Assembly (NCBI GenBank): GCA_040880525.1
Contig: JBBDIG010000024.1
Span: 12,522-76,521 of the forward strand
Source of the DNA: Bacteroidia bacterium
Lineage (GTDB): Bacteria; Bacteroidota; Bacteroidia; CAILMK01; JBBDIG01
Reading direction: 5' to 3'
DNA: 64,000 nucleotides
The stretch's first letter is position 1; the number at the start of each line of letters is the position of its first letter. Position numbers and translations under genes: made by a program. Below are positions 6,544 through 63,766 of this stretch, piece by piece. Below the pieces are notes generated by a model that made no database searches, was not told the DNA's origin, and worked only from the letters and a program-made list of their open reading frames with translations.

Positions 6544-7686
6544 TTAGTTTATTATCACTTTTTTAGTAATAAGTTTTTCATTGATTTTAATTCGAATAAA
6601 ATACATTCCTTTAGCCAATCCTGACACATTGATCTCGTTTTTTTGTCCATATACCTTTACAGTTTTCCCGTTTGAATCCATTATCTCCACCGATTTTGGG
6701 ATTTGAGTGAATTTTAATACGTTGTTAGTTGGGTTTGGAAACAAACCTATTAAATGAGAGGTATTTATTCCAGGCTTTGGAAATGAAACTCCAGAATATC
6801 TCCAAACTCCTTCATACAATGTGCTCACGATTATGGATCTGTTATGAATGACAAAGTCTGAAATAAAATTACCTAAAAAACTTGAGTTGTGAGAGGTCCA
6901 TGTGTTGCCAGTATCGGAAGATAAAAAAATGCTTTTACCCCATGTTCCGCTGAGCATTTTATCACCAGCCATAGTTACAGTTGTCACAAAATCCTCAGTT
7001 ATTCCGTTGCTTGATTTAATCCAAGTCTTTCCATAATTTTCTGATTTATAAAATCCATCTATGGTACCTGCTATTACAAGCGAATCGAAAATTTTTATGG
7101 AATTCGTTTGAATATTAACTCCACTTGGAGGGTTCCACGTGCTTCCTCCATCCGAAGACATAAAAATACCAATGTATGTTCCGGCAAAGATGGCTTGAGA
7201 GTTTATAGCTAATGATAAAGCATTCAAATTTTTTAAACCATTATTGATTGCGGTCCAGCTCGAACCGTTGTTCAATGATTTAAAGACGCCTCCACCAGCC
7301 GTGCCTACATAAAGAATGGAACCTAAAGCTACTATATCCCTTATGTCTAGATTAGTAAGCCCATTGTTTATAGGTGTCCATGACGAACCATTGTTGTCTG
7401 ATAAGAACAGACCATTCCATGTCCCCGCATAGATATTCCCCTGATTGGTTTCGATGACCCTAACTACTCTTTCAGATAGTCCGGTATTTATAGAATTCCA
7501 CGTCAATCCATTATCTGTTGAAAGGAATATTCCGTCAAAATCGGTTCCAACATAAAGATTAGTTTCATCACTTGCTACACATCTGGCTTTAACATCGGAG
7601 AGTCCTAATAAGTCCCATTGTGCAATCGCATGAAGGGAGTAAAAAATTGATAGAAATATTGTTAATAGTTGTTTCATGGCTTTCAA
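6544..7686 (-). CDS. BNR/sortilin-repeat protein with T9SS C-terminal sorting domain
   Basis: It has a signal peptide and repeated 'S.DGG.SW' BNR-like motifs. The C-terminal ~80 aa ('LFPNPTNNVLKF...GMYFIRIKIN') look like a Por secretion CTD. Confidence 0.7.
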   Translation of the reverse strand: MKAMKQLLTIFLSIFYSLHAIAQWDLLGLSDVKARCVASDETNLYVGTDFDGIFLSTDNGLTWNSINTGLSERVVRVIETNQGNIYAGTWNGLFLSDNNGSSWTPINNGLTNLDIRDIVALGSILYVGTAGGGVFKSLNNGSSWTAINNGLKNLNALSLAINSQAIFAGTYIGIFMSSDGGSTWNPPSGVNIQTNSIKIFDSLVIAGTIDGFYKSENYGKTWIKSSNGITEDFVTTVTMAGDKMLSGTWGKSIFLSSDTGNTWTSHNSSFLGNFISDFVIHNRSIIVSTLYEGVWRYSGVSFPKPGINTSHLIGLFPNPTNNVLKFTQIPKSVEIMDSNGKTVKVYGQKNEINVSGLAKGMYFIRIKINEKLITKKVIIN

Positions 7687-10156: not shown

Positions 10157-11065
10157 TTAGAATACCCTGCTAAACATTTGGCCGCCAAGGTCAGTCTTAT
10201 TTTGGTTCAATAAAAGAGTAAGCGCCAGTTGATGGCTCGCAAAAACATAATTATTACTTATAGGAAATTCATAATGGTATGATATCCTGATGACACCTTT
10301 TTGAATTCCGGTGAGTAAATAGATAGCCTCCATACTACCTTCCTCTAAAAAGACGCCTCCCGTAAACCAACCTTTGTGAGCTTGTATGCCGGTTAAAATC
10401 TTCCAGTTTGTTGACTTTTTTTCAAGAAGTACGGATGGGTTGATAACCCAACTTTTATCACCGGACGATAATTTATGCCAATAGCCACCCTGAAATCTAA
10501 AAACCCGGGGCTGTGGATTATCTCCGGAAAAAGTCCTCAGGATTGGACGGAATAAATTGTCCACACTTAATCCCCCGTAAAAGGTGTTTTTATAAAATAA
10601 AATACCAGTTCCCCAATTAATATAACTTTCGTGAGTTTCAAGATACCGGAGGTGGGAGGAAAGTGTTTCATCGGGAATTGTACTTTCAAAATAATTTGCC
10701 TTAACTCCTATGCGCATCGCCATCTTATCTGAAAACGAAATGCGGTAATTATACATCCCACCTACCGTGCTGTGTTTATCGAATGGCCAGCGATGATAGG
10801 AGGCGAAAAAGCCCAGGCCTCCACCCAATTGATCAAAGTGCTGATCATGGCTGCCAATCCATGCATCATTGGTTGCAGACAAAAAGCGTGACCAGCGTTG
10901 CATCCCACTCAGGGTTATCCGCGCATGTTCTGTGGTTCCGGCAAATGCGGGGTTTACCATCACGGGGAACGTCATTGGGTGCAGCAAACCCTCAATTTGA
11001 GCATATAAAGGGTTCGTGGTCAGTAACAGCGTGAATATCAGCAGGATTTTCATTATAGATGTCAT
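10157..11065 (-). CDS. type IX secretion system membrane protein, PorP/SprF family
   Basis: A signal peptide is followed by the PorP/SprF N-terminal signature '...NPAFAGT...LSGMQRWS'. The length is about 300 aa. Confidence 0.65.
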   Translation of the reverse strand: MTSIMKILLIFTLLLTTNPLYAQIEGLLHPMTFPVMVNPAFAGTTEHARITLSGMQRWSRFLSATNDAWIGSHDQHFDQLGGGLGFFASYHRWPFDKHSTVGGMYNYRISFSDKMAMRIGVKANYFESTIPDETLSSHLRYLETHESYINWGTGILFYKNTFYGGLSVDNLFRPILRTFSGDNPQPRVFRFQGGYWHKLSSGDKSWVINPSVLLEKKSTNWKILTGIQAHKGWFTGGVFLEEGSMEAIYLLTGIQKGVIRISYHYEFPISNNYVFASHQLALTLLLNQNKTDLGGQMFSRVF

Positions 11066-22149: not shown

Positions 22150-22237
22150 ATAAAAACAGGATTTACCATAGTTATGAATTAATATACTATTGTTAATATT
22201 TTGTGGTAAAGTAGTTTTGTTAAAAATATTAATCAAA

Positions 22238-23086
22238 ATGAAACTACGATACTTACTTCTTTCCCTGGCCCTGATCCCGGGGTACTCACTTTTGCACGGA
22301 CAAACCTCATTGCCTTATTACTCAGCCTTTGACGATGCTTCGCAGCAGGACGGCTGGGAGGAATACGAAACGGGCACAGACAGCGATCCTTACCACTGGA
22401 ATTTTGCATCATTTGCAGCCTACTCCCCTCCACATAGCCTGAATCACAACTATCCTGTGGGCGGCTCGGAGCGCACCGATGACTGGTTTGTATCACCCGA
22501 ATTCGATTTTAGCAATGGCGCTACTATAGATTCATTGCGGTATGTTTTCACAGGTTTCGGTACACCCATGGACGGAGATACGATCGCGATCTATCTTATT
22601 AATGGTTCGAAAGATCCGGAGACAGCCACAACCCGCACCATTCTTTACAATTTTACTGACAGCACCTATGAGAATGATAATGTTTGGCGAAAGCTGGAGG
22701 CATTGAATATTCCCGCCACCAGCGGACAAAGCCACATAGCATTCCGTTATACCACCATTGTGAACTGGCTGGATGTGAGACTGGATAATTTAAAGATCAG
22801 CGAAAAGCCCACTGGTATAAATGAACCGGCAGCAATCAATGAGGCGATTACTATATATCCAAATCCGGTTATCACAGAATTAACGGTAGCGTGGAATTTC
22901 AGATCTGAAGGAGCCACCATTACGCTGTTCAATATGAATGGAAAAGTGATGCAGCGCCAATTGATCGCAGGAGAATCTCAGCAGAAGCTTATCCTGGAAA
23001 CCGGTGGGTTAAAGCCGGGAATATATATGTTACAGGTTACCGGCACGTCAGGCCGTGTTTTTTCCAGAAGATTTTTGAAACAATAA
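22238..23086 (+). CDS. secreted protein with T9SS C-terminal sorting domain
   Basis: It has a signal peptide 'MKLRYLLLSLALIPGYSLLHGQ'. The C-terminal CTD reads 'ITIYPNPVITELTV...GIYMLQVTGTSGRVFSRRFLK'. Confidence 0.65.
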   Translation: MKLRYLLLSLALIPGYSLLHGQTSLPYYSAFDDASQQDGWEEYETGTDSDPYHWNFASFAAYSPPHSLNHNYPVGGSERTDDWFVSPEFDFSNGATIDSLRYVFTGFGTPMDGDTIAIYLINGSKDPETATTRTILYNFTDSTYENDNVWRKLEALNIPATSGQSHIAFRYTTIVNWLDVRLDNLKISEKPTGINEPAAINEAITIYPNPVITELTVAWNFRSEGATITLFNMNGKVMQRQLIAGESQQKLILETGGLKPGIYMLQVTGTSGRVFSRRFLKQ

Positions 23087-34335: not shown

Positions 34336-34500
34336 AATAGATGCTTCTAGGTTCAATGTTCAATGTTCCGAGTTCAACGTTCGATGTTCCGAGTTCAACG
34401 TTCAATGTTCGATGTTCACTGGTCAGTGGTCGATGCTTCGTAGAACACAGAACCCGGAACCCGGAACGCAGAACCCGGAACGCAGAACTCGTTTCAGTAT
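34336..34500. repeat. heptanucleotide-phased GTTC/GAAC repeat tract (imperfect long palindrome)
   Basis: The sequence (gttcNNN)x~10 runs into (NNNgaac)x~7, for example 'gttcaatgttcaatgttccgagttcaacgttcgat...agaacccggaacccggaacgcagaacccggaacgcagaac'. It sits in a divergent intergenic region. Confidence 0.85.
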
Positions 34501-35298: not shown

Positions 35299-35334
35299 AA
35301 AAACCGCTTTGGCAAATTGCCGGGCGGTTTTTTA
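35299..35334 (+). terminator. rho-independent terminator
   Basis: 'aaaaccgctttggcaaattgccgggcggtttttt' lies directly after csbD. Confidence 0.65.
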
Positions 35335-35520
35335 CATTTAGGCCTTGTTTACCCCCGGTCCAGGTGCCGGGTTCGAGGTTTGTATTGTATCTATTTTAGA
35401 AAAAACTATTTTTTAGGTAAGCCATTTTCGGGTGTTTATATGTGGCGGTTAAATTTTATCTGAGAATAAACTATTTTTTTAATAGTTATCAATATCTTTG
35501 GACGATAATTGAGCATTTAA

Positions 35521-36612
35521 ATGATAGCCTTACAAAATATAGCCGTTTGCCAACCCTTCATGCCTCCGATGGAAAGTTATACGGAGAAGCTACACGGCAT
35601 TTGGCAGCGAAACCGCATTACCAATAATGGCCCGCTGGTGAAGGAACTGGAGGAGGAACTACGTCAATATCTGAACGTGCCGTACCTGCACTTTGTGGCA
35701 AATGGTACGATAGCTTTACAAATAGCTATAAGGAGTCTGGAACTGAAAGGAGATGTTATTACTACACCATTTTCTTACGTAGCCTCTACTACTTCTATTA
35801 TCTGGGAGAATTGCCAGCCTCTTTTCGTGGATATAGATCCTTTGACGATGTGCATTGACCCGAAGAAAATTGAGGATGCCATCACGCCCGAAACTACGGC
35901 TATTGTTGCCACCCACGTATATGGCTATAGTTGCGATGTAGAGGCAATCAGAAGCATAGCGGATCGCCACGGCCTGAAGGTGATTTATGATGCGGCCCAT
36001 GCTTTTGGCTCCTCGTTCCAGGGGAGCTCACTGCTTAGCCATGGCGATGTAACTGCTGTAAGCTTTCATGCCACCAAGATTTTTCATACGGTGGAGGGCG
36101 GAGCGGTAATTACCCATAATGAGAAGCTGGCGGAGAAAATGTTCCTGATGAAAACGTTTGGTCACCGGGAGGAAGAATTCATTTGCGCAGGCATTAACGG
36201 AAAAAATTCGGAATTCCATGCGGCAATGGGCCTGTGTGTGCTCCCCTATGTAGAATCGTTGATTAAAGCGCGCAAGGAATTATGGGAGAGCTATTGCATC
36301 AACCTGGCGAATGCTGGCCTGGTGCTGCCCTATTTGCAATCCGGCCTGGATTACAACTATGCTTACTTTCCCGTCATTTTTCAATCGGATAAAGAGCTGC
36401 TTTACGTAAAAGAGCGGCTCCAGTCTGAAAACATTATTACCAGGAGATACTTCTACCCATCGCTGAACAAATTGCCATATTTAAAAGGAGCCGATTGTCC
36501 GGTGGCAGAAACGGTAGCCGAGCGGGTACTATGCCTGCCGCTTTATTCCGATCTGCAGATGGAGCAGGTAGCGTATATTTCATCTATTATTACTGAAGCT
36601 CTTAATCCATGA
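35521..36612 (+). CDS. DegT/DnrJ/EryC1/StrS family sugar aminotransferase (WecE/ArnB-like)
   Basis: The PLP-dependent layout includes '...LHFVANGTIALQIAI...GDVITTPFSYVASTTSI...PLFVDID...' and a Lys region 'SFHATKIFHTVEGG'. Confidence 0.8.
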   Translation: MIALQNIAVCQPFMPPMESYTEKLHGIWQRNRITNNGPLVKELEEELRQYLNVPYLHFVANGTIALQIAIRSLELKGDVITTPFSYVASTTSIIWENCQPLFVDIDPLTMCIDPKKIEDAITPETTAIVATHVYGYSCDVEAIRSIADRHGLKVIYDAAHAFGSSFQGSSLLSHGDVTAVSFHATKIFHTVEGGAVITHNEKLAEKMFLMKTFGHREEEFICAGINGKNSEFHAAMGLCVLPYVESLIKARKELWESYCINLANAGLVLPYLQSGLDYNYAYFPVIFQSDKELLYVKERLQSENIITRRYFYPSLNKLPYLKGADCPVAETVAERVLCLPLYSDLQMEQVAYISSIITEALNP

Positions 36613-37343
36613 GGATTGCCATCATGCAACCTTACCTCTTTGCGTATCCAGGCTATTTTGAGCTGCTGGCTTCTGTGGATAAATTTATCCTTTATGATGA
36701 TGTTAACTATATAAAAAATGGCTGGATAAACAGGAACCGGATCGCCATTAATGATCAACCCGTATATTTTACGGTGCCTCTTCAAAAACAAAGTTCATTC
36801 AGAACCATTGCTGAAACTTCTATTCATAAAAAGTTATACAGCCATTGGAAGCTTAAATTTCTGCTCACACTAAAGATGCAATATAGCCAGGCGCCTTATT
36901 ATTCGGAAGTATATGATTTAGTACAGAAAGTTATTGATCCGCCACCGGTCTCTATAGCTGCCCTGGCTGGGAAAAGTGTGGTGGCGGTGGCAGATTACCT
37001 GGGACTGGAAATTCCGGTTTCCCATAGCAGCGACAACCGGTACGGAAACCATGATTTAAAAGCAGAGAAGCGCGTACTGGATATTTGCAGGCAAGAAGGT
37101 GCAGATGAATATGTGAACAATGCTGGCGGCATCAAATTATATTCTCCCGCTATTTTTCAGGAGGCCGGAATTACGTTGCATTTTCTTCATCCCCGGTTGC
37201 TGACCTACGCGCAGCAGAAGGAACCATTTATTCCAAACCTCTCCATCCTGGATGCAATGATGCACCTTTCTCCTGAGCAGATCCAGGATTGGCTGCGGAA
37301 ATACCGGCTGCAAACACCCATCGAAAAACCAGTATTAAGATGA
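36609..37343 (+). CDS. WbqC-like family protein
   Basis: 'MRIAIMQPYLFAYPGYFELL...FILYDDVNYIKNGWINRNRI' is the WbqC signature. The start overlaps the DegT stop. Confidence 0.7.
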   Translation: MRIAIMQPYLFAYPGYFELLASVDKFILYDDVNYIKNGWINRNRIAINDQPVYFTVPLQKQSSFRTIAETSIHKKLYSHWKLKFLLTLKMQYSQAPYYSEVYDLVQKVIDPPPVSIAALAGKSVVAVADYLGLEIPVSHSSDNRYGNHDLKAEKRVLDICRQEGADEYVNNAGGIKLYSPAIFQEAGITLHFLHPRLLTYAQQKEPFIPNLSILDAMMHLSPEQIQDWLRKYRLQTPIEKPVLR

Positions 37344-38035
37344 CAAAAGAAAAAGCAAAGAAAATTGTGATTTTCGGAGCAAGCCAGTTGGCAAGCCTTG
37401 CTCATTTTTATTTTAAACATGATTCCCCGCATTCTGTGGTGGCTTTTACTGTGGACGCAGAATATTGCAGGAATGAAGAATATGAAAAGCTGCCCCTCGT
37501 GCCATTTGAAAAAGTACAGGAAATTTACCCTCCCTCAGAATATGCAATGTTTCTTCCCATCAGCTTCAAGCGGATGAGCCTGTTGCGCAGAGAAAAATAT
37601 GAGGCGGCTAAGGCCAAAGGATATGAGATCGTGAGTTATGTGAGTTCGAAAGCTACCACGTGGCCTGGCCTCGACATTGGAGAAAACTGTTTCATTTTCG
37701 AGGATAATACCATTCAGCCGTTCGTCAGGATCGGTGACAACTGTATTTTATGGAGTGGTAATCATATCGGCCACCATACTACCATTGGCAGCCATGTTTT
37801 TATCACTTCGCACGTAGTGATCTCCGGCTGTTGCCAGATTGGCGAGCATTCATTTTTTGGCGTTAATTCTACCGTACGTGATGAAACCGATATTGCGCCT
37901 TTTTCACTCATCGGAATGGGAGCCATCATTACCAGGGACACGGCTCCACAACAAATTGTATTAGGTGCAAAATCCAGCGCCATTGACAAGAAAAGCATTG
38001 AGTTGGACAGCATTTCGCATAAAACCGGGGGCTGA
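37340..38035 (+). CDS. sugar N/O-acetyltransferase, NeuD/PglD/VioB family (left-handed beta-helix)
   Basis: The N-terminus reads 'KIVIFGASQLA'. The hexapeptide repeats read 'IGDNCILWSGNHIGHHTTIGSHVFITSHVVISGCCQIGEHSFFGVNSTV'. Confidence 0.75.
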   Translation: MTKEKAKKIVIFGASQLASLAHFYFKHDSPHSVVAFTVDAEYCRNEEYEKLPLVPFEKVQEIYPPSEYAMFLPISFKRMSLLRREKYEAAKAKGYEIVSYVSSKATTWPGLDIGENCFIFEDNTIQPFVRIGDNCILWSGNHIGHHTTIGSHVFITSHVVISGCCQIGEHSFFGVNSTVRDETDIAPFSLIGMGAIITRDTAPQQIVLGAKSSAIDKKSIELDSISHKTGG

Positions 38036-38036
38036 T

Positions 38037-38966
38037 ATGTGGGAGAAAAAAGGGCTGATCTTTAATACAAATAAAAACCACGAATGGATGGTAAGCCATG
38101 CCTGCGTACCCACCGCATGGCAGAAGGATGCAGAAACCATCAGAATATTTTTTGCTCCGCGAAATGCCAAAGGACAAAGCATTCCCACTTTCCTGGATGT
38201 TGCCGCGGCCGATCCTTCCAAAGTCATTCACCTGCATGATGCCCCGATTATGAATCCGGGCGAAACGGGAACTTTTGATGACAGCGGCATTATGCCCTGT
38301 TCAATTACAGAACATGAAGGGCGGCTCTACCTGTACTATGTAGGCTGGAATCCTGCGGTTACGGTGCCCTACCGTAATTCCATAGGGCTGGCAGTGAGTG
38401 ATAACGGGGGTGTAACATTTCAGCGGCTATTCAAAGGACCGGTGGTAGACCGTAACCTGCACGAACCGTTTTTTACCGCTTCCCCCTGCGTATTGAAAGA
38501 GGGAGATCTATGGCGAATGTGGTATGCCTCTTCCACGGGATTCGTAATGGCCAATGGAAAACCGGAACCACTGTATGTTATTAAATACGCAACTTCTTCG
38601 GATGGCATCCATTGGCAGCGGCCCAATATTACCTGCATTCTTCCAAAATCAGAGTATGAAGCCAATGCCCGGCCTACAGTAATTATCGAAGGCGGGATCT
38701 ACAAGATGTGGTTCACCTACCGTGGCAGTTTTGATTATCGCGATGGCAAGGATAGCTACCGCATCGGCTATGCAGAATCTACAGATGGTATTGACTGGAA
38801 GCGAATGGATGAGCGAGCCGGGATCAACCTCTCTCCGGACGGCTGGGACAGCAAAATGCAAACTTATCCTGACGTGCTGCGGGTGGGAGAGGAGCTCTAT
38901 TTATTTTACAATGGAAATGGATTCGGCCGCACCGGAATTGGTTATGCGCGCTGGGTTCATGATTAA
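38037..38966 (+). CDS. 5-bladed beta-propeller glycosidase-like protein (GH43/GH32/GH130-like fold), hypothetical
   Basis: Recurring 'DGG..W.R' and 'lY.fY' blade-like motifs ('SDNGGVTFQR', 'SSDGIHWQR', 'STDGIDWKRMD') are typical of beta-propeller glycosidase folds. Confidence 0.45.
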   Translation: MWEKKGLIFNTNKNHEWMVSHACVPTAWQKDAETIRIFFAPRNAKGQSIPTFLDVAAADPSKVIHLHDAPIMNPGETGTFDDSGIMPCSITEHEGRLYLYYVGWNPAVTVPYRNSIGLAVSDNGGVTFQRLFKGPVVDRNLHEPFFTASPCVLKEGDLWRMWYASSTGFVMANGKPEPLYVIKYATSSDGIHWQRPNITCILPKSEYEANARPTVIIEGGIYKMWFTYRGSFDYRDGKDSYRIGYAESTDGIDWKRMDERAGINLSPDGWDSKMQTYPDVLRVGEELYLFYNGNGFGRTGIGYARWVHD

Positions 38967-38978
38967 AATTATTATTAA

Positions 38979-39647
38979 ATGAAATTACTCAAATACGATC
39001 TTGAGAAATTTAATTTTCCTGCCCTTATCGCGTCTTTCCTGAATGTGGAAAGTCTTGCAGATATGAAGGCGGAGAAAAATGAAGCCATAAAAAATGAAAA
39101 TTCTCTGTATAAAAATATGGAGCAATCCAAATGGTATAAACTTCTTTATAGCAAATTAAATTCTGGTGAAGGCGAGGCTTTTTATGAGATGTATGAAAAA
39201 TTTATTCAAGAAGTTATAAGACCGCAATACCCGGAGGCCATATTTTACCAGGCACGGCCCACCCACCGGATCCATTTCTCAAATGGCAGTGGCATCAGCC
39301 GCTTTCATCGCGACAGCGATTATGGCCATAACCTGGCTGAGGTGAACTACTCCGTTCCACAAACCCCGGCTTTTGATACCAATGCCATCTGGATTGAAAG
39401 CGAGGAGGGAAAAGCGGATTTTCAACCCATGAATATGCAACCTGGCCAATACGCTGAATTCAAAGGATGCAGCCTGATGCATGGTGCCAGGAAAAATGAA
39501 ACCGGGGCTACCCGCGTCTCCTTCGATTTCCGGGTCATGCCCGTTTCCGCTGCCCCTGACGTATACACAGACCAATCAAAATGGAGCGAGCAGGACAAGC
39601 AGAATCCATTGTTCCTCAATGCACATCAATTTGTCATTTGTAATTAG
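38979..39647 (+). CDS. hypothetical protein, putative Fe(II)/2-oxoglutarate-dependent oxygenase (PhyH-like)
   Basis: 'FHRDSDYGH' provides the HxD motif. 'LMHGARKN...RVSFDFR' provides the distal His plus Arg. Confidence 0.4.
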   Translation: MKLLKYDLEKFNFPALIASFLNVESLADMKAEKNEAIKNENSLYKNMEQSKWYKLLYSKLNSGEGEAFYEMYEKFIQEVIRPQYPEAIFYQARPTHRIHFSNGSGISRFHRDSDYGHNLAEVNYSVPQTPAFDTNAIWIESEEGKADFQPMNMQPGQYAEFKGCSLMHGARKNETGATRVSFDFRVMPVSAAPDVYTDQSKWSEQDKQNPLFLNAHQFVICN

Positions 39648-39692
39648 AACCCCATTTTTTAAGCATATTAAGAAGCAACGGCAGGTAAGTTT

Positions 39693-40634
39693 GTGCAGAT
39701 GCAAAATCCTAAAGTGACCGTCTCGGTCATCACCTACAATCAGGCAAAGTATGTGGAAAAGGCGCTGCAAAGCGTCCTCAGCCAGGAGGTGGATTTCGCT
39801 TATGAAATTCTGATCGGAGATGACTGCTCAACGGATGGCACAAGGGAGTTGCTAAAGCAATTTCAGCAATCCTTTCCTGATCGTATCCGGCTTTTTCTCC
39901 ATGAAAAAAAGTACCAGGGCGTACCGGGAAAACTCAGCATTGTCACAAACCTGGAAGCCGCAAAGGGAGAATACATAGCATTGCTTGATGGGGACGATTG
40001 GTGGGAAAGCAACAATAAACTCCAGGTACAGGCTGATTTCCTGGACCAGCATCAGGACTTCGCGCTCACCTTTCACAATACCAGCTTTCTGTGGGAAGAG
40101 AACCTGCATCCTGCATGGAGTTACAATGATCGCTACCACCATTATGGGAAAACAGCCGGATTCACCCACCAGGAGGTTGTGGCAGGATTGGATATAAATT
40201 CCTCCTCTATGATGTTCAGGCTCAGTGCTTTACTGCCAATCCCGGAGTGGTACTGGCAGGTGTATAATGGCGATTATGCAATGGCGCTGCTAACCTCCCG
40301 TCATGGCAAAGTGAAGTATTTCGAGGGCCTCACCTGCTGTTGTTTCAAGAATACCAGCAGCATGACGAGGGTAAGCGAGAATTCGCTGTGGGCCAATAGC
40401 ATTATGATTAAACAAAACCGGGCTTTTAAGAAGCATTTTAAGCGGGAGTATGCACCGGTTTTCCAGCAGCGAATTGCTGATCTGTATTTTAAGCGTGGAT
40501 TTATTCTTCGCAGAATAGGAAAGTATGCCGCTATGTCTGCAGCATTTGCAAGAGCCGCAGCCATTTCACCAACGACTGCCATTCACTACCTGAAGAAGAA
40601 ATTCAACAATAACGGAATAAAGCAGCAGGTGTGA
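39693..40634 (+). CDS. family 2 glycosyltransferase
   Basis: 'VSVITYNQAKYVEKALQSVLSQ...ILIGDDCSTDGT' and 'LLDGDDWW' are GT2 motifs. Confidence 0.8.
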   Translation: MQMQNPKVTVSVITYNQAKYVEKALQSVLSQEVDFAYEILIGDDCSTDGTRELLKQFQQSFPDRIRLFLHEKKYQGVPGKLSIVTNLEAAKGEYIALLDGDDWWESNNKLQVQADFLDQHQDFALTFHNTSFLWEENLHPAWSYNDRYHHYGKTAGFTHQEVVAGLDINSSSMMFRLSALLPIPEWYWQVYNGDYAMALLTSRHGKVKYFEGLTCCCFKNTSSMTRVSENSLWANSIMIKQNRAFKKHFKREYAPVFQQRIADLYFKRGFILRRIGKYAAMSAAFARAAAISPTTAIHYLKKKFNNNGIKQQV

Positions 40635-41578
40635 AAGTTAGTGTATCCATTATTACCTACAACCAGGAAAAATACATAGCTAAGGCCATTGAAAGCGTGC
40701 TGATGCAGGAAGTAGATTTTGACTACGAGATCATCATTGGAGACGATTGTTCAACGGACGGTACCCAAGCCATAATTGAAAAATACCGTCAGCAATACCC
40801 GGAGTTGATACGCTTTATAGCCCATAAGGAGCGCTATTCCGGAGTTCCGGGCCGCCTCAATTTAATCACGAATATTCAGGCTGCCAAAGGCGAATACGTA
40901 GCGCTGCTGGATGGAGACGATTACTGGCTGGACAAACATAAGCTCCAGCAGCAGGTAACGTTCCTGGACGAAAACCCGGATTACGTCATGTGTTTCCATG
41001 ATGCCATCGTGGAGTCTGATGAAAACAACCTCAAGCCTTTTCTCTACAGCAAGCAATTGCGCCTGTCTCCGGGAATGGTCGTGGAGCATAATGAACTGGT
41101 TTCGCGGTGCCTCATACCTGCTTCCTCCACGGTTTATCGCAGAAGTGTACTCAGCGAAATACCGGAGTGGTTCTGGGAAGTATACAGCGGCACCTGGATA
41201 TTGCAGATGCTGATCTCCAAAAAGGGACGCGTAAAATATTTCCATGACCTGAAGTACAGATATACTGTAAATAAAGGAAGCATTAGCCACAGGGATAAAT
41301 TGTCGCTGGATGTGAATCGCATTAAGATCCGCCAAACGAAGACGCTGCAAAAGCATTTCCCGGAAGTGCCGGGTTCTGTTTTTCGCCATAAGCTTGCGGC
41401 CCTTTATTTCAGACGCGCCATCTTCGCCAGCCACAGGAAAGACTTTCTGCGGGTATTATTATACCTTCTTAAAAGCGCACTGATTAACAGAAAAGCATTT
41501 ATGATTATGCTGAAGAAATACGGCAGCCGTGTAAACGGCAGAACTGGCGGTGCGATAGAAAACGGAGCACAGGAATAG
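40631..41578 (+). CDS. family 2 glycosyltransferase (tandem paralog, GTG start)
   Basis: 'VSIITYNQEKYIAKAIESVLMQ...IIIGDDCSTDGT' and 'LLDGDDYW' are GT2 motifs. It is about 50% identical to the upstream GT2. Confidence 0.75.
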   Translation: MKVSVSIITYNQEKYIAKAIESVLMQEVDFDYEIIIGDDCSTDGTQAIIEKYRQQYPELIRFIAHKERYSGVPGRLNLITNIQAAKGEYVALLDGDDYWLDKHKLQQQVTFLDENPDYVMCFHDAIVESDENNLKPFLYSKQLRLSPGMVVEHNELVSRCLIPASSTVYRRSVLSEIPEWFWEVYSGTWILQMLISKKGRVKYFHDLKYRYTVNKGSISHRDKLSLDVNRIKIRQTKTLQKHFPEVPGSVFRHKLAALYFRRAIFASHRKDFLRVLLYLLKSALINRKAFMIMLKKYGSRVNGRTGGAIENGAQE

Positions 41579-41717
41579 AAATAGCGGGTTAATTCAATCA
41601 TAGAATATTCCTCATTAAATTTAGAATTATAAAAAGGATGCTTCTACCCCTCCAATCTTTACCCGGCCGCTGATCCGGAACTATGCTACTTTTGAAAGCA
41701 TGAAAACTGAAGGGCAA

Positions 41718-42791: not shown

Positions 42792-43616
42792 TTACTTTTT
42801 TACCAGTGGAAGTTCCATTTCATCTACCATCCACCAGCCATCGTCATTCGTAAGGTGGATCCGTGCATTCGCTTTCATCCCGGTATGGGTGGTTTTTCCT
42901 TTGGGAAAGGCTTTGCAGGTAATCAGTATTTTGATGAATGCAGAACCTGAGTCACCCATTTGCAGATCCGTTACCCTTACGTCCTGCACTTCTATTGAAA
43001 AGTATGCATCAGAGAAATGAGTGAGGTACCGCTTCAGGTCTTTTCTCCTGGAAAACGTCAGGCCGTTGAATTTCAGGATTTTTGCAAAATGATACCATTG
43101 CTCATAATCCGGGTTCTGAAGCAGGTCCCTGGCCACTTGTGTCGCGGCGTCTACAACGTCTTCTGAATCATTTGGATGAAACTCTTCATAAGTGAAGCAC
43201 ATTTTCATCCCGGGTATGTCGTGGGCAATTACCTCCTGCTGCATCAGATCTTCGGTCATAAATCTGTACATTTCCTCCTCCGCCACTTCATGCAGCGAGT
43301 CCACTGCAATATTGTGTCTCTTCAGGAGCGACCGGAGTTTCCGCAATGAACTTTCAACATCCTTTGGCTCCAGATCTTTCAGTGGGACCAGATCCGGTTG
43401 GCCTATCACGTCAAATACTTTCCTGGCAGGCTCGTCTTCCATGCGCTGATGAAAGGACCGGATGTGATGCAGAAACTGCATTTCCACATCGGGTGGAAGT
43501 TCAGGGTTTCCCTCAATGAAAAAGGCCCCCAACTCCGCCTGGATCTTCAATTTTTCCACTTCAACTGCCTGACGCTGCTGTTCCATTCTGCTTTTTCCTT
43601 GTGGCATGTGTTTCAC
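42792..43616 (-). CDS. hypothetical protein (C-terminal NTF2-like/DUF4440-like region)
   Basis: No clear family could be assigned. The C-terminal region 'RVTDLQMGDSGSAFIKILITCKAF...IHLTNDDGWWMVDEMEL' resembles NTF2-like folds. Confidence 0.35.
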   Translation of the reverse strand: MKHMPQGKSRMEQQRQAVEVEKLKIQAELGAFFIEGNPELPPDVEMQFLHHIRSFHQRMEDEPARKVFDVIGQPDLVPLKDLEPKDVESSLRKLRSLLKRHNIAVDSLHEVAEEEMYRFMTEDLMQQEVIAHDIPGMKMCFTYEEFHPNDSEDVVDAATQVARDLLQNPDYEQWYHFAKILKFNGLTFSRRKDLKRYLTHFSDAYFSIEVQDVRVTDLQMGDSGSAFIKILITCKAFPKGKTTHTGMKANARIHLTNDDGWWMVDEMELPLVKK

Positions 43617-44204
43617 TGCGGTTTTTAATGAAGGGCAATTTAAGAAGAAGGCATGCGCTCCGGTTAATGGTTTTCAGGGATTTTGCCTGGTTATTACAAA
43701 TGTTTCTGAATGGGATATTTTTAATTCTGGTGATCATGTTTTGAGGGTGATTGTGTTTTGCGGATGGGAGCGCTTGGGCTGCTTGCTATAATAATTTCAT
43801 CCCTTCAGAATTTCCAAAAATTGATGAAAAAAATGGATGACAACATTTCCAACATTTCGATCCATACCCCCGGTTTCAACCGGGGGTATGAAGAATGCCG
43901 ACCCATAACCGTTTCAACGGTTTATTGTAGCGGCTAACCCTTCACTCCCAACCCTTCAAGGGTTTTGCTGCAACAATATATGATATCAATTGGATTTAAA
44001 GCGCTGATTTTTAGTATCAACGCAACAATCGCCAGGATAGATTTTCTGTATTGAGTTTAATAGTATCTTTGATAACGACTTCCCCGGAATTCATTTTTTT
44101 CACACCTAACATTAAAAGATAACCCTTATGAAAAATATGAATTCTTTCTTACGGCTTTTCGCAGCAGTTTGTCTTATCGTTATCCAGGGCAAGTTTATTA
44201 TCCA

Positions 44205-46898
44205 ATGAAATATTTAATGTTCATACTCCTTTCATTCCCCTCCTGCCTATTGGCGCAGGAGGGGAATGTCTGGATTTTTGGGAGTAAAAACGGCCTTGAC
44301 TTTAATACGGAACCCCCTACAGTTATAACCAATGGGGCATCGCTAGGTACGGCTTCTTGTGCCAGCTATTGTGACAGCCTGGGCAGGTTACTATTTTATT
44401 GTCTCGATGATTCGATATACAATAGGAATCATCAATTCATACCTGATGGGAAATTTGGACAGGAATCCGGTTCCTATTCCCAAGCCGCTATTATCCTTCC
44501 TGTTGTCGGCCAACCATCCCTGTATTATCTGTTTCTGGTAGATAATATTCTGGGCGGTGTTGGTGTTAAAAAGGACGGTGCTACCTATTCTGTTATAGAC
44601 ATGCGGTTGAATAATGGTTTAGGAGGAATTGCAACAAAGGAAGTACCTTTTTTTAAAAAAACCTGCCATAAAATCACGGCCATTCAGCATGTCAATCAAA
44701 AGGATTACTGGGTCATCACCCGGAGTGGGGACAGCCTCTTTGCCTTTCCAATTACGGAAGCTGGAATTGGCTCCCCCGTTACTTCCTATATGCCAGCCCT
44801 TGAAGGCATAGGAAATATAAAAGCTTCACGGGATGGGAAGATTTTGATCGAATGCAGTTCCACTTTTGACAGTTTTGTATATATCTACGATTTTGATCCG
44901 GGTTCAGGCGTTTTTTCCAATCAAAGCATCCTAGAGCAATTTATCCGTGAATTCAATCAAGAAACACTTTTCCGGTATCAGGATGCTACATTTTCACCCA
45001 ATGATTCTTTACTGTATATTGTAGGATATGGTCATGATAATAAAGGCCAAGTCTATAGTTCAAACCGACAGCCTCTGGCCCAATACCAGCGTTATGCACC
45101 GGATATAAAATCTACCCGGCATTGGGTGTTTCCTCCTGCTAATGATGGGTTTGCTTCACTTCAACTTGCACCCAATGGAAAAATTTATGTCAACCCTATT
45201 GGGCATGACCACATGGCGGTGATCCATTCTCCTGACTCTATAGGGGAGGCCATGCAGCTAGAATTTCAGTATATTGACTATCCCCAAAACCAGTATAGCC
45301 GCTTTGCCTTCCCCAACATCATCAATGCCTATAAATCCGTTAAATTCCGCTACACCCAAAACTGCAGCTACAGATATCAGAATGTATCTGACACCCAGTT
45401 CTTCAGCACCTACACCTGGTTCTTTGCCGATCATTTTACCGGGATTACCGACAGCGTTGAAGGGTTTGCACCCTCGTATCAATTTTCGCGCACGGGGAAA
45501 TACCTCGTGAAGCTGCGGGCCACCACGCCAGCGGGCTACAACCAGTGGTACAGTGACAGTGTGCTGTTTATTTCCCGCCCCCAGGCAACTTTTACCACAG
45601 AAGATACTACCGGCTGCCAGTGGTTGGGCTTCCGGTTTGCGGATGCATCCACCACCGATACCCTGGATACCACGCGCGGTGAAAGCTGGCTATGGCACTT
45701 CGGTGATGGCACCACCGGCACGGAACAAAATCCCACCCACATCTACACCGAAAACGGCAGCTATACCGTGAGCCTGATTTACAACAACGGCTTCTGTAGC
45801 GATACCATTACCAGAAAGCAGGTGGTAGAGATATTGCCTGCCCCCAAACCGGGCTTTTCGCTCAGTGCTGCTTCGGGCTGTGCGCCTTTCACTGCGCAAG
45901 TCACGGATCAATCGCAGGGGCAGGTAACGCACTATACCTACTACTACGGCCACCTCACCGGCCTTCATATTCCCGATCCGGAGATCAGCTTCCCCGAACC
46001 GGGCGATTTCTGGGTGCATCAAATTCTGCTCTCACCCACCGGCTGCATCACGCAAGATTCCGTGGCCGTGGATGTTTCAGATGGCTTCTCTGAAAATGAC
46101 AGCATTCATACGGTGGTAGCCACGGTTACAGCCAGCCAGCATGTATCGCTGCAATGGCAGCCGCACCCGCTGGCCCGGCTCTACCAAGTGTTCCGGCTGG
46201 ATGACGGCACTTTCACGGAGTTGGCAAAAACATCATTTACCGACTACACGGACCACGGTGCGCCCGTGGCAGCGCAGCCGGTAACCTACCGCATTACCGC
46301 CAGCGACAGTTGCGGCAAACAATCCTCTGCAGGCCGTGTGGCCACCACCATCCACCTTTCCGGAACCAGCCATGGCAATGAGTTCAACCTCATCCGCTTT
46401 TCGGCTTATGAAGAATGGCCCAATGGCGTTGGCCACTACACAATCGAGATTCAGCAGCCGGAGGGCACTTTCGATTCCGTAGCCTCTATGCCGCAACCCG
46501 TTGCAGATTACAAACTGGACTTCACACCCACAAACGGGCAATACCAAACCTGTTACCGCATAAAAGCCGTGAAGAAGGAGGGAAACTTTGTCAGCCTTAG
46601 CAACCGCCTGTGCCTGCCTTATCAGCCCACCGTCTGGGTGCCCACGGCCTTCAGCCCCAATGGTGACGGCTACAACGACACGTTCAGCGCCACCGCCATT
46701 GGCATCCATTCCTTCAAGATGGAAATCTACACCCGCTGGGGGGAGCAGGTATTTTCTTCAGGCGACCTTAACCAAAGCTGGGACGGCAGCATCAATGGAA
46801 AACCTGCACAGGCAGGCGTTTACCTCTACAAGTTGCGCGTATTCGGTAGCGACAATAAATACACAGAAAGCGAAGGGACGCTGTTGCTGGTGAAGTGA
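44205..46898 (+). CDS. large secreted PKD-domain protein with T9SS type-B (gliding-motility-associated) C-terminal domain
   Basis: It has a signal peptide 'MKYLMFILLSFPSCLLAQ'. A PKD-like segment reads 'WHFGDGTTGTEQNPTHIYTENGSYTVSLI'. The C-terminus 'PTAFSPNGDGYNDTF...YTRWGEQVF...WDGS...GVYLYKLRVFG' is a CHU_C/type-B CTD. Confidence 0.75.
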   Translation: MKYLMFILLSFPSCLLAQEGNVWIFGSKNGLDFNTEPPTVITNGASLGTASCASYCDSLGRLLFYCLDDSIYNRNHQFIPDGKFGQESGSYSQAAIILPVVGQPSLYYLFLVDNILGGVGVKKDGATYSVIDMRLNNGLGGIATKEVPFFKKTCHKITAIQHVNQKDYWVITRSGDSLFAFPITEAGIGSPVTSYMPALEGIGNIKASRDGKILIECSSTFDSFVYIYDFDPGSGVFSNQSILEQFIREFNQETLFRYQDATFSPNDSLLYIVGYGHDNKGQVYSSNRQPLAQYQRYAPDIKSTRHWVFPPANDGFASLQLAPNGKIYVNPIGHDHMAVIHSPDSIGEAMQLEFQYIDYPQNQYSRFAFPNIINAYKSVKFRYTQNCSYRYQNVSDTQFFSTYTWFFADHFTGITDSVEGFAPSYQFSRTGKYLVKLRATTPAGYNQWYSDSVLFISRPQATFTTEDTTGCQWLGFRFADASTTDTLDTTRGESWLWHFGDGTTGTEQNPTHIYTENGSYTVSLIYNNGFCSDTITRKQVVEILPAPKPGFSLSAASGCAPFTAQVTDQSQGQVTHYTYYYGHLTGLHIPDPEISFPEPGDFWVHQILLSPTGCITQDSVAVDVSDGFSENDSIHTVVATVTASQHVSLQWQPHPLARLYQVFRLDDGTFTELAKTSFTDYTDHGAPVAAQPVTYRITASDSCGKQSSAGRVATTIHLSGTSHGNEFNLIRFSAYEEWPNGVGHYTIEIQQPEGTFDSVASMPQPVADYKLDFTPTNGQYQTCYRIKAVKKEGNFVSLSNRLCLPYQPTVWVPTAFSPNGDGYNDTFSATAIGIHSFKMEIYTRWGEQVFSSGDLNQSWDGSINGKPAQAGVYLYKLRVFGSDNKYTESEGTLLLVK

Positions 46899-62220: not shown

Positions 62221-63138
62221 ATGAATATGAAGCTAAAAATACTTGGACTTGCATGCTTGGCGCTACTCATGATCCAGTGCCAGAAAGAGGCGATGTTAAC
62301 CCCTTCAGGACCGGCAGCTCCGGTCAGGATTTCCTCTGACTACAATATGTTGGTTTTTGCAGATCAGGCAAGTTTCGACAGTACTATGAAAGTACTATTT
62401 AGCTATGAAAGCAAAGATCTTCACCTATGGGAAGAATCTATGAACTTCCATTCCATGAGAGCCTTTTACAATCCCATTCCTGAGGATTTAGGTGATACGC
62501 TTTTGGCTCCTCTTACAGAAATGGCACCTCAACCTGTAGAGGATCATTGGCTGGCCGCGATCCTAACGCCTGAAGGTTTTATGGGGATTGCAGATACGGT
62601 TTACCTTTTTACGAGGGATACCACTTATTCTTATGTCGACAATCAAGAGGTTAAAGCTTTCCCGATCAAGAGATATCTGATTACCCGCCCGGCTGATCCA
62701 GGGCTCATTTCCTGTGATGATGTAGCCGATTATGAATATAATGTCAAGATGTCGACAGTGAAAACTACGCTTAACGCAGGAATCCTTAAAACGCATTCCT
62801 GGGCGATTCGATTTAGCTTTTTCTATTCTTCCACGGGGGTTACAGTAGTTCATTACAAGGAAACACCTTACTATTTTCAGGGTACATGGAGTACATATTT
62901 AAAAGAAACACCTGCGGATTTTCTGGGACTGGAATGGAATATATGCTCGATTGAAGGGTATTGGGGATTTCCCAAAAGTCATGTAGGATCAATGCAGAAG
63001 TGGGGTCACTCAACCATTTCAAAAGTTGTGAGAACAGTAGTATTTGCAGATGTGGGAATTAAAGGCATCTATAAATCGGAGTATAATAATTCTTCGTATA
63101 GCGATAATGTCATAACACCTCAATATTATGGAATCTAA
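62221..63138 (+). CDS. hypothetical lipoprotein
   Basis: 'LGLACLALLMIQC' is a lipobox. No other motif was recognised. Confidence 0.4.
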   Translation: MNMKLKILGLACLALLMIQCQKEAMLTPSGPAAPVRISSDYNMLVFADQASFDSTMKVLFSYESKDLHLWEESMNFHSMRAFYNPIPEDLGDTLLAPLTEMAPQPVEDHWLAAILTPEGFMGIADTVYLFTRDTTYSYVDNQEVKAFPIKRYLITRPADPGLISCDDVADYEYNVKMSTVKTTLNAGILKTHSWAIRFSFFYSSTGVTVVHYKETPYYFQGTWSTYLKETPADFLGLEWNICSIEGYWGFPKSHVGSMQKWGHSTISKVVRTVVFADVGIKGIYKSEYNNSSYSDNVITPQYYGI

Positions 63139-63766
63139 AATGCCAGGCTGCCCTTTACTATTGAATCAAATAAAACCACTCTTAAGCATACTGTTCAGCT
63201 TGTGGTTTGTCTCTGGCTCTCCTGTTTTGGCCCAGGAAATATCGCTATATGACACGGCCATTGTTGAACAATATTCTGAGTCAACGGGGATTTCTTCCAG
63301 TGAGAGCGAACCCAGGCTCCAAAGGTCCAGGAATGTGGTGTATGCAGAGTTTCTTGGAATCAGCCACTTTGAGTCAATCAACTATGAACGGATTTTTTTT
63401 AGGAGCGGCAATGTGCATTTTTCAGGCAGGGCAGGAGTAAGCCTGATGGAGATTCTATTGGTGCGCTCCGCATCAGGTGAAAATCCAGGGAGCGGCCTCA
63501 ACTGTGGTATCGGGACTCCGGCATGGTTTCCGGTGTCGTTCAATGCGATGTATGGAAAGAAAAAGAATTTCCTTGAAGCAAATGTTGGGATGACCTTCAG
63601 CACACAGCCTGACCATGTACTCTTTCCTTCAGCCGGGCTGGCTTATCGTCACCAGGCCCTTGAGCGGGGAATATTCCTTCGGATAAGTTGCTACTCTATG
63701 TATACCTCTGTACTTGGTAAAGTATCGCTGAGACCCGGTTTGAGCGTGGGTTATGCGTTTGATTAA
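63128..63766 (+). CDS. hypothetical secreted/outer-membrane protein
   Basis: It has a signal peptide ('LLSILFSLWFVSGSPVLAQ'). The rest is beta-rich. Confidence 0.35.
   Translation: MESKMPGCPLLLNQIKPLLSILFSLWFVSGSPVLAQEISLYDTAIVEQYSESTGISSSESEPRLQRSRNVVYAEFLGISHFESINYERIFFRSGNVHFSGRAGVSLMEILLVRSASGENPGSGLNCGIGTPAWFPVSFNAMYGKKKNFLEANVGMTFSTQPDHVLFPSAGLAYRHQALERGIFLRISCYSMYTSVLGKVSLRPGLSVGYAFD

Follow-up and report, generated by a model that had tools for sequence, protein, structure and literature searches.

A predicted surface-glycan tailoring operon of a Bacteroidia bacterium containing a WbqC-family protein and a conserved acyltransferase-propeller pair

Amino acids are found in amide linkage on several O antigens of Escherichia coli (O91, O121, O167, O114, O110, and O63) (PMC7685785), and the one bearing N-acetylglycine is O121, where it is carried on 4-amino-4,6-dideoxyglucose (Qui4N) (PMC7685785; PMC3210612). 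Our full-text literature search found no paper naming the enzyme that attaches amide-linked amino acids to surface sugars, no report giving the WbqC family a function, and none on BshC-like ligases in O-antigen synthesis or on a viosamine-glycine ligase. Here, we analyzed a run of seven genes at positions 35521-41578, on the + strand, of a 64-kb stretch of contig JBBDIG010000024.1 from a Bacteroidia bacterium (the whole stretch is called the window below). These genes encode, in order, a DegT aminotransferase, a WbqC family protein, a NeuD-like N-acyltransferase, a five-bladed beta-propeller protein, a PhyH-like 2-oxoglutarate (2OG) oxygenase (ORF5), and two family 2 glycosyltransferases (GT2a and GT2b). 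The initial annotation had guessed all seven families, including the propeller and the oxygenase, from the sequence alone, and every one of these guesses was borne out. We give a probability of roughly 0.5 to the reading that the operon builds and transfers an acyl-aminoacyl 4-amino-6-deoxyhexose for a surface glycan, with its two dedicated GT2 enzymes, the assembly and export genes being located elsewhere.

In the E. coli O121:H19 gene cluster the order is galF, tviB, an epimerase gene, rfbB, rfbA, DegT, WbqC, GNAT, wzx, and GT2, followed by a gene resembling left-handed beta-helix (LbH) O-acetyltransferases, wzy, asnB, two GT4 genes, and gnd; the DegT, WbqC, and GNAT genes overlap. The window operon shares with this RmlB-RmlA-VioA-WbqC-GNAT module, which is presumably also that of the Shigella dysenteriae type 7 O antigen, the adjacent and overlapping DegT and WbqC genes followed by an N-acyltransferase gene. 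The O121 acyltransferase is, however, a GNAT protein of 140 aa, whereas that of the window is an LbH enzyme of NeuD type, and the window operon adds the propeller and the 2OG oxygenase but has no adjacent rmlAB, wzx, or wzy. By our own reasoning, the other genes of the O121 cluster would serve precursor synthesis, the three glycosyltransferase steps of a WecA-started four-sugar unit, amidation, and export. Since these remaining genes have evident roles, WbqC and the GNAT protein are left for glycine addition and acetylation. Among NCBIfam models, the O121 GNAT comes closest to that of RimI, which acetylates alpha-amines, although it stays far below the cutoff. Of 5426 complete E. coli genomes, 13 contained a wbqC of the O121 type; six of these are labelled O121 and one O103, and the others have no serogroup listed.

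The first gene of the window operon (35521-36612, +) encodes a DegT/VioA-like pyridoxal phosphate (PLP)-dependent sugar aminotransferase of 363 aa, matching PF01041 with an E-value of 2.7e-86 (290.5 bits, gathering threshold 19.8). Along its full length it shares 42% identity with the aminotransferase of the O121 cluster, and both contain an SFHATK motif whose lysine we take to be the PLP-binding lysine of the DegT family. The best NCBIfam model is that of DesI (TIGR04427, 247 bits against an equivalog cutoff of 650), and DesI is also the best solved relative (2po3, E 1.7e-49). The enzyme is predicted to turn dTDP-4-keto-6-deoxyglucose into dTDP-Qui4N.

The WbqC family protein (36609-37343, +, 244 aa), a predicted ATP-dependent ligase, matches PF08889 with an E-value of 1.5e-64 (218.3 bits, gathering threshold 21.3) and was called orthologous to the WbqC family protein of O121, to which it is 38% identical. 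Its model (predicted local distance difference test score 95) resembles in fold BshC and the class I aminoacyl-tRNA synthetases, and a Rossmann-type nucleotide-binding core is present. Because of the O121 orthology, this fold, and the N-acetylglycyl-Qui4N of O121, WbqC is most likely an ATP-dependent ligase that would add an amino acid to the 4-amino group; the product would therefore be an acyl-aminoacyl amino sugar and not a plain acetamido sugar. The initial annotation had called the role of WbqC unknown and had proposed an N-acylated, possibly hydroxylated amino sugar. No published function was indeed found for WbqC, but the orthology and the fold point to an amino-acid ligase, and the idea of an N-acylated sugar holds in the refined form just given. 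The invariant MQPYxFxYxGY segment of WbqC comes after strand 1, at whose end we presume a HIGH motif would be expected, and it is not a HIGH motif. As there is neither a sequence match nor such a motif, WbqC was filed as fold-related only, and not as a member of the aminoacyl-tRNA synthetase, BshC, or MshC class.

In mycothiol synthesis, an MshC ligase acts before an MshD acetyltransferase. The mycothiol and bacillithiol pathways differ, with 540 residues in BshC against 244 in WbqC, no sequence similarity between the two, and a small-molecule thiol as acceptor, against a presumed nucleotide sugar on its way into a polymer in the case of WbqC.

The third gene (37340-38035, +) encodes a NeuD/PglB/VioB-like LbH N-acyltransferase of 231 aa. 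Like the NeuD, PglD, VioB, and PerB acetyltransferases, it has a hexapeptide-repeat beta-helix (Hexapep, E 2e-20), and its score against TIGR03570 (160.8 bits) exactly equals the cutoff of 160.8, with LpxA and LpxD as the next-best models. In contrast to those enzymes, it aligns over the helix only, at an E-value of 7e-11 or weaker, the best solved relative being VioB (7txp, E 7e-11, helix region only), and it has signatures of its own, IQP and WSGNHxGH, that do not vary across 14 loci representing seven or more phyla.

Directly 3' of the acyltransferase gene lies that of a cytoplasmic five-bladed beta-propeller of an unnamed family (38037-38966, +, 309 aa). The fold guessed in the initial annotation was confirmed, with GH137 and GH130 as the closest folds, and no signal peptide or transmembrane segment was found in the protein. 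The accompanying label of glycosidase or phosphorylase fits this fold but not a family membership: the weak sequence matches to GH130, GH43, and GH117 all stay under curated cutoffs, at 22.1 against 26 for PF04041 (GH130), 16.9 against 32.2 for PF04616 (GH43), and, for two further GH130 models, 52 against 450 (NF052550) and 25 against 550 (NF058598). These scores, together with the non-conserved Asp described below, rule out a true member of GH130 or GH43. The best-conserved polar residues among 56 diverse representatives were R36, R42, D81, D/E143, K/R183, R229, R235, Y241, R256, D258, D271, N292, and N294, and H21 was conserved in 47 of the 56. No functional account of the family, including propellers in nonulosonic-acid clusters, was found in the full-text literature search.

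The closest structural neighbors within GH130 are Teth514_1788 and Uhgb_MS, beta-1,2-mannoside phosphorylases that also act weakly as glycosyltransferases and are 13-17% identical to the propeller; unlike theirs, its gene context is biosynthetic, beside an acyltransferase. Both phosphorylases accept mannose 1-phosphate as a donor and, to a weak extent, GDP-mannose as well (PMC12814180). Nucleotide or phosphate sugars can thus be bound by this fold. The GH137 beta-L-arabinofuranosidase BT_0996 is similar in fold (14-16% identity), with no other link. BT_0996 degrades plant cell-wall pectin. In HMMER alignments, blades III-IV of the propeller pair with GH130 blades I-II, and its own blades I-II pair with GH130 residues 192-296. 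Either a two-blade circular permutation or mere ambiguity among repeated blades could account for this, the NCBIfam alignment being in another register.

The propeller family is large. Among the best 120 of its 6466 homologues (63-72% identical), all those with a named source came from Bacteroidota, and an exhaustive search gave 865 clusters (50% identity) at E < 1e-30, nearly all of them stand-alone proteins of about 300-330 aa. No fusion to an acyltransferase was found among the clusters when we searched for a fused partner. In one fusion (P0484), the N-terminal 220 aa or so form a domain that, judged by eye, is an FkbM-type methyltransferase, and another (P0505) has an unassigned N-terminus of 120 aa. 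In addition, five entries (P0361, P0400, P0405, P0429, and P0446) are very long, at 901 to 5844 aa, and match the propeller up to 36 times in tandem; the sequence of P0429 shows the same blade motif in tandem repeats, and these five seem to be a separate family of repeat proteins.

The conservation of the acyltransferase-propeller pair was followed in a sample of 16 propeller-seeded loci, examined in detail (numbered loci below carry the prefix L). DegT is present in all 16, WbqC in 12, and NeuB in six. An LbH acyltransferase is encoded in 14; of the other two loci, one is cut by the contig edge and L009 has a GNAT gene instead. In these propeller-seeded loci, the acyltransferase gene is nearly always directly 5' of the propeller gene (13 of the 14; in L018, from Myxococcota, two genes lie between), and this direct adjacency was seen in Bacteroidota, Nitrospirota, Alphaproteobacteria, Eremiobacterota, Acidobacteriota, and Gemmatimonadota. 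Across loci, the acyltransferase stop and the propeller start are separated by a few nucleotides or overlap. In four Bacteroidota loci, identity to the window proteins is 46-54% for DegT and 35-47% for WbqC, while it is 65-69% for the propeller (50% in L012); for the acyltransferase it is 72-75% among the four and 48% in the fifth, L012. The order DegT-WbqC-acyltransferase-propeller, followed by GT2 directly or after ORF5, is found in Rufibacter, Chryseobacterium, Flavobacterium, Autumnicola, and Tunicatimonas. Elsewhere, recurrent neighbors of the module include TylF-type and class I methyltransferases, FkbH, a phosphopantetheinyl transferase, and a B12 radical-SAM enzyme. For example, genes for FkbH-like, carrier, phosphopantetheinyl-transferase, dehydratase, ketoreductase, and B12 radical-SAM proteins adjoin the acyltransferase-propeller pair in L018 (5846-11580) and L001 (15680-18756), which hints at an acyl donor that, in some lineages, may be assembled on a carrier protein.

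Relatives carry these genes within polysaccharide loci. The five-gene core of DegT, WbqC, acyltransferase, propeller, and GT2 comes with an upstream ABC transporter and RmlB and RmlA in Chryseobacterium foetidum, where RmlB and RmlA, each of which exceeds its equivalog cutoff, are some 2-5 kb 5' of the cassette and separated from it by three genes. In a Flavobacterium metagenome-assembled genome (L005) the core is part of an ABC-transporter locus with NeuB, NeuC, and NeuA, and in Rufibacter soli of a Wzx-type locus. Autumnicola musiva and Tunicatimonas pelagia share the gene order of the window, except that the second GT2 is absent from the former. Next to it in both genomes, which belong to two different Bacteroidota classes, is a convergent block (L033, 11644-18971; L034, 12845-20172) encoding a glycosyltransferase, DegT, a formyltransferase, a FemAB-like aminoacyl transferase, a GFO/IDH/MocA oxidoreductase, Wzt with a Wzt_C domain, and Wzm. 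The block points to a further amino sugar, formylated or aminoacylated, and to an export that recognizes a chain-end cap. Overall, exporter and precursor genes adjoin the homologous genes in L001, L002, L005, L033, and L034, and the module is a normal part of polysaccharide loci in these relatives.

The situation differs in the window, where a Pfam scan covered all but about five of the non-shadow open reading frames (ORFs) of at least 150 aa. No Wzx, Wzy, Wzz, Wzm/Wzt ABC exporter, RmlA, RmlB, or NeuB was found among the scanned ORFs, in line with what had been noted for Wzx, Wzy, Wzz, and ABC exporters from the sequence. The gene set of a canonical O-antigen or capsule locus (Wzx/Wzy or Wzm/Wzt with precursor genes) is likewise not present among them in the 64 kb. 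The operon stands alone in this genome, detached from the export genes that accompany the copies of its relatives. The view that it is not a standard O-antigen locus is therefore right for the layout of this genome but not for the relatives, which carry the same genes in Wzm/Wzt or Wzx loci.

From these data a pathway of six steps can be proposed. An aminotransferase of VioA/DesI type, as suggested by orthology, would aminate dTDP-4-keto-6-deoxyglucose to dTDP-Qui4N, with RmlA and RmlB encoded outside the window. WbqC would then activate an amino acid with ATP and form an amide bond with the 4-amino group, a step proposed from the fold and from the correlation of gene and structure in O121. 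The NeuD-like acyltransferase would cap a free amine, most likely the alpha-amine of the amino acid, from acyl-CoA or from an acyl-acyl carrier protein, by analogy with MshD in mycothiol synthesis and, presumably, the GNAT of O121. The resulting N-acylated nucleotide sugar is probably also the substrate of the propeller. Of the six steps this one is the least secure, and our best guess would be chemistry at or near the anomeric phosphate or the sugar (glycosyl or phosphate transfer), or presentation of the substrate to the acyltransferase; as the propeller gene directly follows that of the acyltransferase, the two may be translationally coupled. The 2OG/Fe(II) oxygenase may hydroxylate the side chain or the sugar. 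Finally, on the cytoplasmic side of the membrane, the two soluble GT2 enzymes would add the completed sugar, along with one more residue, to a lipid-linked acceptor.

Several observations count against this pathway. For WbqC, a profile search against PDB sequences gave no sequence similarity to any solved protein and an ATP-binding motif was not identified; moreover, to our knowledge, the ligase activity of BshC itself has not been reconstituted in vitro. The acyltransferase could acetylate Qui4N directly like VioB, in which case WbqC would have another role. The dTDP carrier of the sugar is a supposition, and rmlAB was not found in the scanned ORFs of the window. The Asp of the EDPR segment, which we take to be the catalytic residue of GH130, is not conserved in the propeller, aligning with Arg212 (HMMER, 7fip and 9fj8) in an ambiguous blade register, and position 212 is itself Arg in only 33 of the 56 family representatives. 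The propeller occurs without WbqC in L007, L009, and L018, whose flanks are visible, and in L015 at a contig edge, and WbqC occurs with DegT and without a propeller in E. coli O121 and in Methylogaea, where the unannotated genes beside WbqC are not propellers. Since the propeller and WbqC each occur alone, the propeller step would be independent of aminoacylation. Two separable modules can be distinguished, DegT with WbqC and the N-acyltransferase with the propeller, and the window combines both.

An unlikely alternative is a plain acetamido-sugar pathway, in which DegT and the NeuD-like enzyme would make dTDP-Qui4NAc as VioA and VioB do, with WbqC, the propeller, and ORF5 being accessory proteins whose roles are unrelated or non-catalytic. 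The acyltransferase does reach the NeuD/PglB/VioB cutoff and has VioB as its best solved relative, although this match covers only the beta-helix region (E 7e-11). The absence of WbqC from three propeller loci with both flanks visible, and from L015 at its contig edge, would also fit. On the other hand, the window WbqC is orthologous to a gene from the one E. coli serogroup with N-acetylglycine on Qui4N, and its gene overlaps both neighbors by ATGA. Moreover, the high conservation of the propeller (64-72% identity in the Bacteroidota matches) and of the acyltransferase (72-75% in four of the five Bacteroidota loci) argues that both are enzymes. We regard as improbable that the sugar being tailored is a nonulosonic acid (pseudaminic or legionaminic type) and not a 6-deoxyhexose; the module would then act on a 4-amino intermediate whose nitrogen ends up as N7 of the nine-carbon product. 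In favor of it, NeuB is encoded in six of the 16 related loci, NeuB, NeuC, and NeuA are found in L005, and L017 is a complete Pse-type nonulosonic-acid locus with PseB-like, DegT, CMP-transferase fusion, PseG-like, and NeuB genes, followed directly by acyltransferase-propeller-WbqC at its end. No NeuB, NeuA, NeuC, or PseB-like gene was found, however, among the scanned ORFs of the window, the window DegT is of VioA/DesI type and only 28% identical to the L017 aminotransferase, and apart from the Flavobacterium locus L005 the loci linked to nonulosonic acids belong to other phyla with a different DegT subfamily. A propeller acting as the nucleotide-sugar hydrolase of such pathways was rejected, as L017 has a PseG-like gene, L005 and L007 have NeuC, and no NeuB was found among the scanned ORFs of the window.

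The destination of the glycan is a separate matter, and its attachment to cargo of the type IX secretion system (T9SS), or to another glycoprotein instead of lipopolysaccharide or capsule, would be compatible with the chemistry proposed here. The initial annotation had offered T9SS cargo as one destination, and nothing that we found ties the operon to it. The window does hold T9SS genes and no exporter close by: three for cargo (Por_Secre_tail or CHU_C) and one for PorP/SprF, at 6544-7686, 10157-11065, 22190-23086, and 44169-46898. They are scattered and none adjoins the operon, the nearest lying 2.6 kb away, past AnmK and an unrelated gene. Bacteroidota genomes generally contain many T9SS cargo genes. 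As the relatives have the same genes beside Wzm and Wzt (with Wzt_C domain) or Wzx, which stand for polysaccharide export, a glycoprotein destination has a low probability. Lower still, and close to negligible, is that of the propeller being a catabolic glycoside hydrolase or phosphorylase that neighbors biosynthetic genes by chance. Its weak matches to GH130, GH43, and GH117 and its structural neighbors, nearly all catabolic glycosidases or phosphorylases, would suggest such a role. But the protein is below every curated family cutoff and lacks both a signal peptide and a transmembrane segment, its neighborhood holds neither SusC/D nor other catabolic genes, and a fusion to an FkbM-like methyltransferase (domain assigned by eye) exists. 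Since the gene also starts 1 nt past the acyltransferase stop, a position kept across at least seven phyla, the catabolic role was rejected.

For this genome alone, the finding is a modest one. Apart from its missing export genes, the operon is an ordinary one for surface-glycan tailoring, and the locus itself is of the ordinary surface-glycan kind, whereas WbqC and the propeller are widespread families for which no function was found in the literature search. The main yield is a directly testable function for WbqC and the definition of a conserved acyltransferase-propeller pair. If WbqC is the ligase attaching amide-linked amino acids, this is directly testable with the enzyme of E. coli O121 and would help to predict the glycan chemistry of WbqC loci; such a ligase class would account for the amino-acid-decorated amino sugars of some O antigens and nonulosonic acids. 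Once defined, the reaction of the propeller would extend into biosynthesis a fold known almost entirely from glycan degradation, and the pair, if rightly read, would be a new carbohydrate-active enzyme family. The joint proposal that WbqC founds a group of compact ATP-dependent aminoacyl ligases for amino sugars and that the acyltransferase and the propeller form a two-component tailoring enzyme, the propeller being a biosynthetic GH130/GH137-like fold with a new active site, is tentative, and we think it rather more doubtful than the pathway given above.

The fifth gene, ORF5 (38979-39647, +), encodes a small PhyH-like 2OG/Fe(II) oxygenase of 222 aa with HxD...H and RxS motifs, and appears to be an optional accessory gene. 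The residues H110-x-D112, H168, and R179-x-S181 are invariant in 42 homologues. The same triad and RxS are found in PhyH-type oxygenases and in TIGR04324 (the "sporadic carbohydrate cluster" oxygenase), to which ORF5 matches weakly and compared with which it is much shorter. Indeed, ORF5 has no Pfam match, scores 27 bits (E 2.4e-6) against TIGR04324, below the cutoff of 150, and gave nothing in a profile search against PDB sequences. With hhalign, it matched PhyH neighbors from other phyla at an E-value of 1.6e-4 and a probability of 50%, the triad and Arg residues being aligned. The family has about 132 homologues, all of those with a named source from Bacteroidota, and seven among the matches listed carry a precomputed PF05721 assignment. 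The ORF5 gene also lies 3' of the propeller gene in L006, L033, and L034, and PhyH oxygenases recur in related loci of other phyla.

The last two genes encode GT2a (39693-40634, +, 313 aa from a GTG start, the public gene call starting at 39699) and GT2b (40631-41578, +, 315 aa). They match PF00535 with E-values of 5e-23 and 2e-28 (82.2 and 99.7 bits, cutoff 23.3), both contain LLDGDD, and at 41% identity they are paralogues, as the initial annotation had held. GT2b is 39-44% identical to the GT2 following the propeller or ORF5 gene in L001, L002, L005, and L006 and, judged by this similarity, is the type that comes after the cassette in relatives.

The seven genes are tightly packed on the + strand, in the ORF list as in the public gene call on the same DNA, at the positions first claimed for them. 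Of the stop/start overlaps noted earlier, two ATGA overlaps could be read from the sequence, at 36609-36612 (DegT/WbqC) and 37340-37343 (WbqC/acyltransferase), along with a GTGA overlap at 40631-40634 (GT2a/GT2b). The remaining junctions are gaps of 1 nt (acyltransferase/propeller), 12 nt (propeller/ORF5), and about 45 nt (ORF5/GT2a). No transmembrane segments were predicted in any of the seven proteins. The GC content of the operon (0.43-0.47) lies within the range of the window (0.38-0.52), and its base composition therefore gives no signal of recent transfer.

The consensus of the Bacteroidota -7 promoter element is TAnnTTTG. A putative -7 box, TATCTTTG, was read from the sequence at 35493-35500 (+), 20 nt 5' of the DegT start codon, and we infer that it is such an element. 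The operon probably ends at 41578, since AnmK, which lies downstream, has a TACTTTTG box of its own at 41687-41694. Upstream, a terminator-like hairpin (35308-35324) lies at the end of the CsbD-like gene. The flanking genes, mostly of housekeeping type, encode an FAA hydrolase, a LapA-domain protein, and the CsbD-like protein upstream, and AnmK, a PKD/CHU_C T9SS cargo protein, TruB, RibF, and an Mrp antiporter downstream.

Further from the operon, three ORFs of 212-305 aa (42792-43616 on the - strand, 62221-63138, and 63128-63766) have no Pfam family, the first having no NCBIfam match either. A gene of the VCA0040/DUF368 type, similar to undecaprenyl-phosphate translocases, lies at 1765-2694, 33 kb from the operon. 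Finally, the divergent intergenic region between the FAA-hydrolase and LapA-domain genes contains, at 34351-34488, tandem arrays of two roughly complementary heptamers, GTTCAAT (about 10 copies) and AGAACCC (about 7 copies), which together fold as one long imperfect hairpin (-53 kcal/mol, z -2.9).

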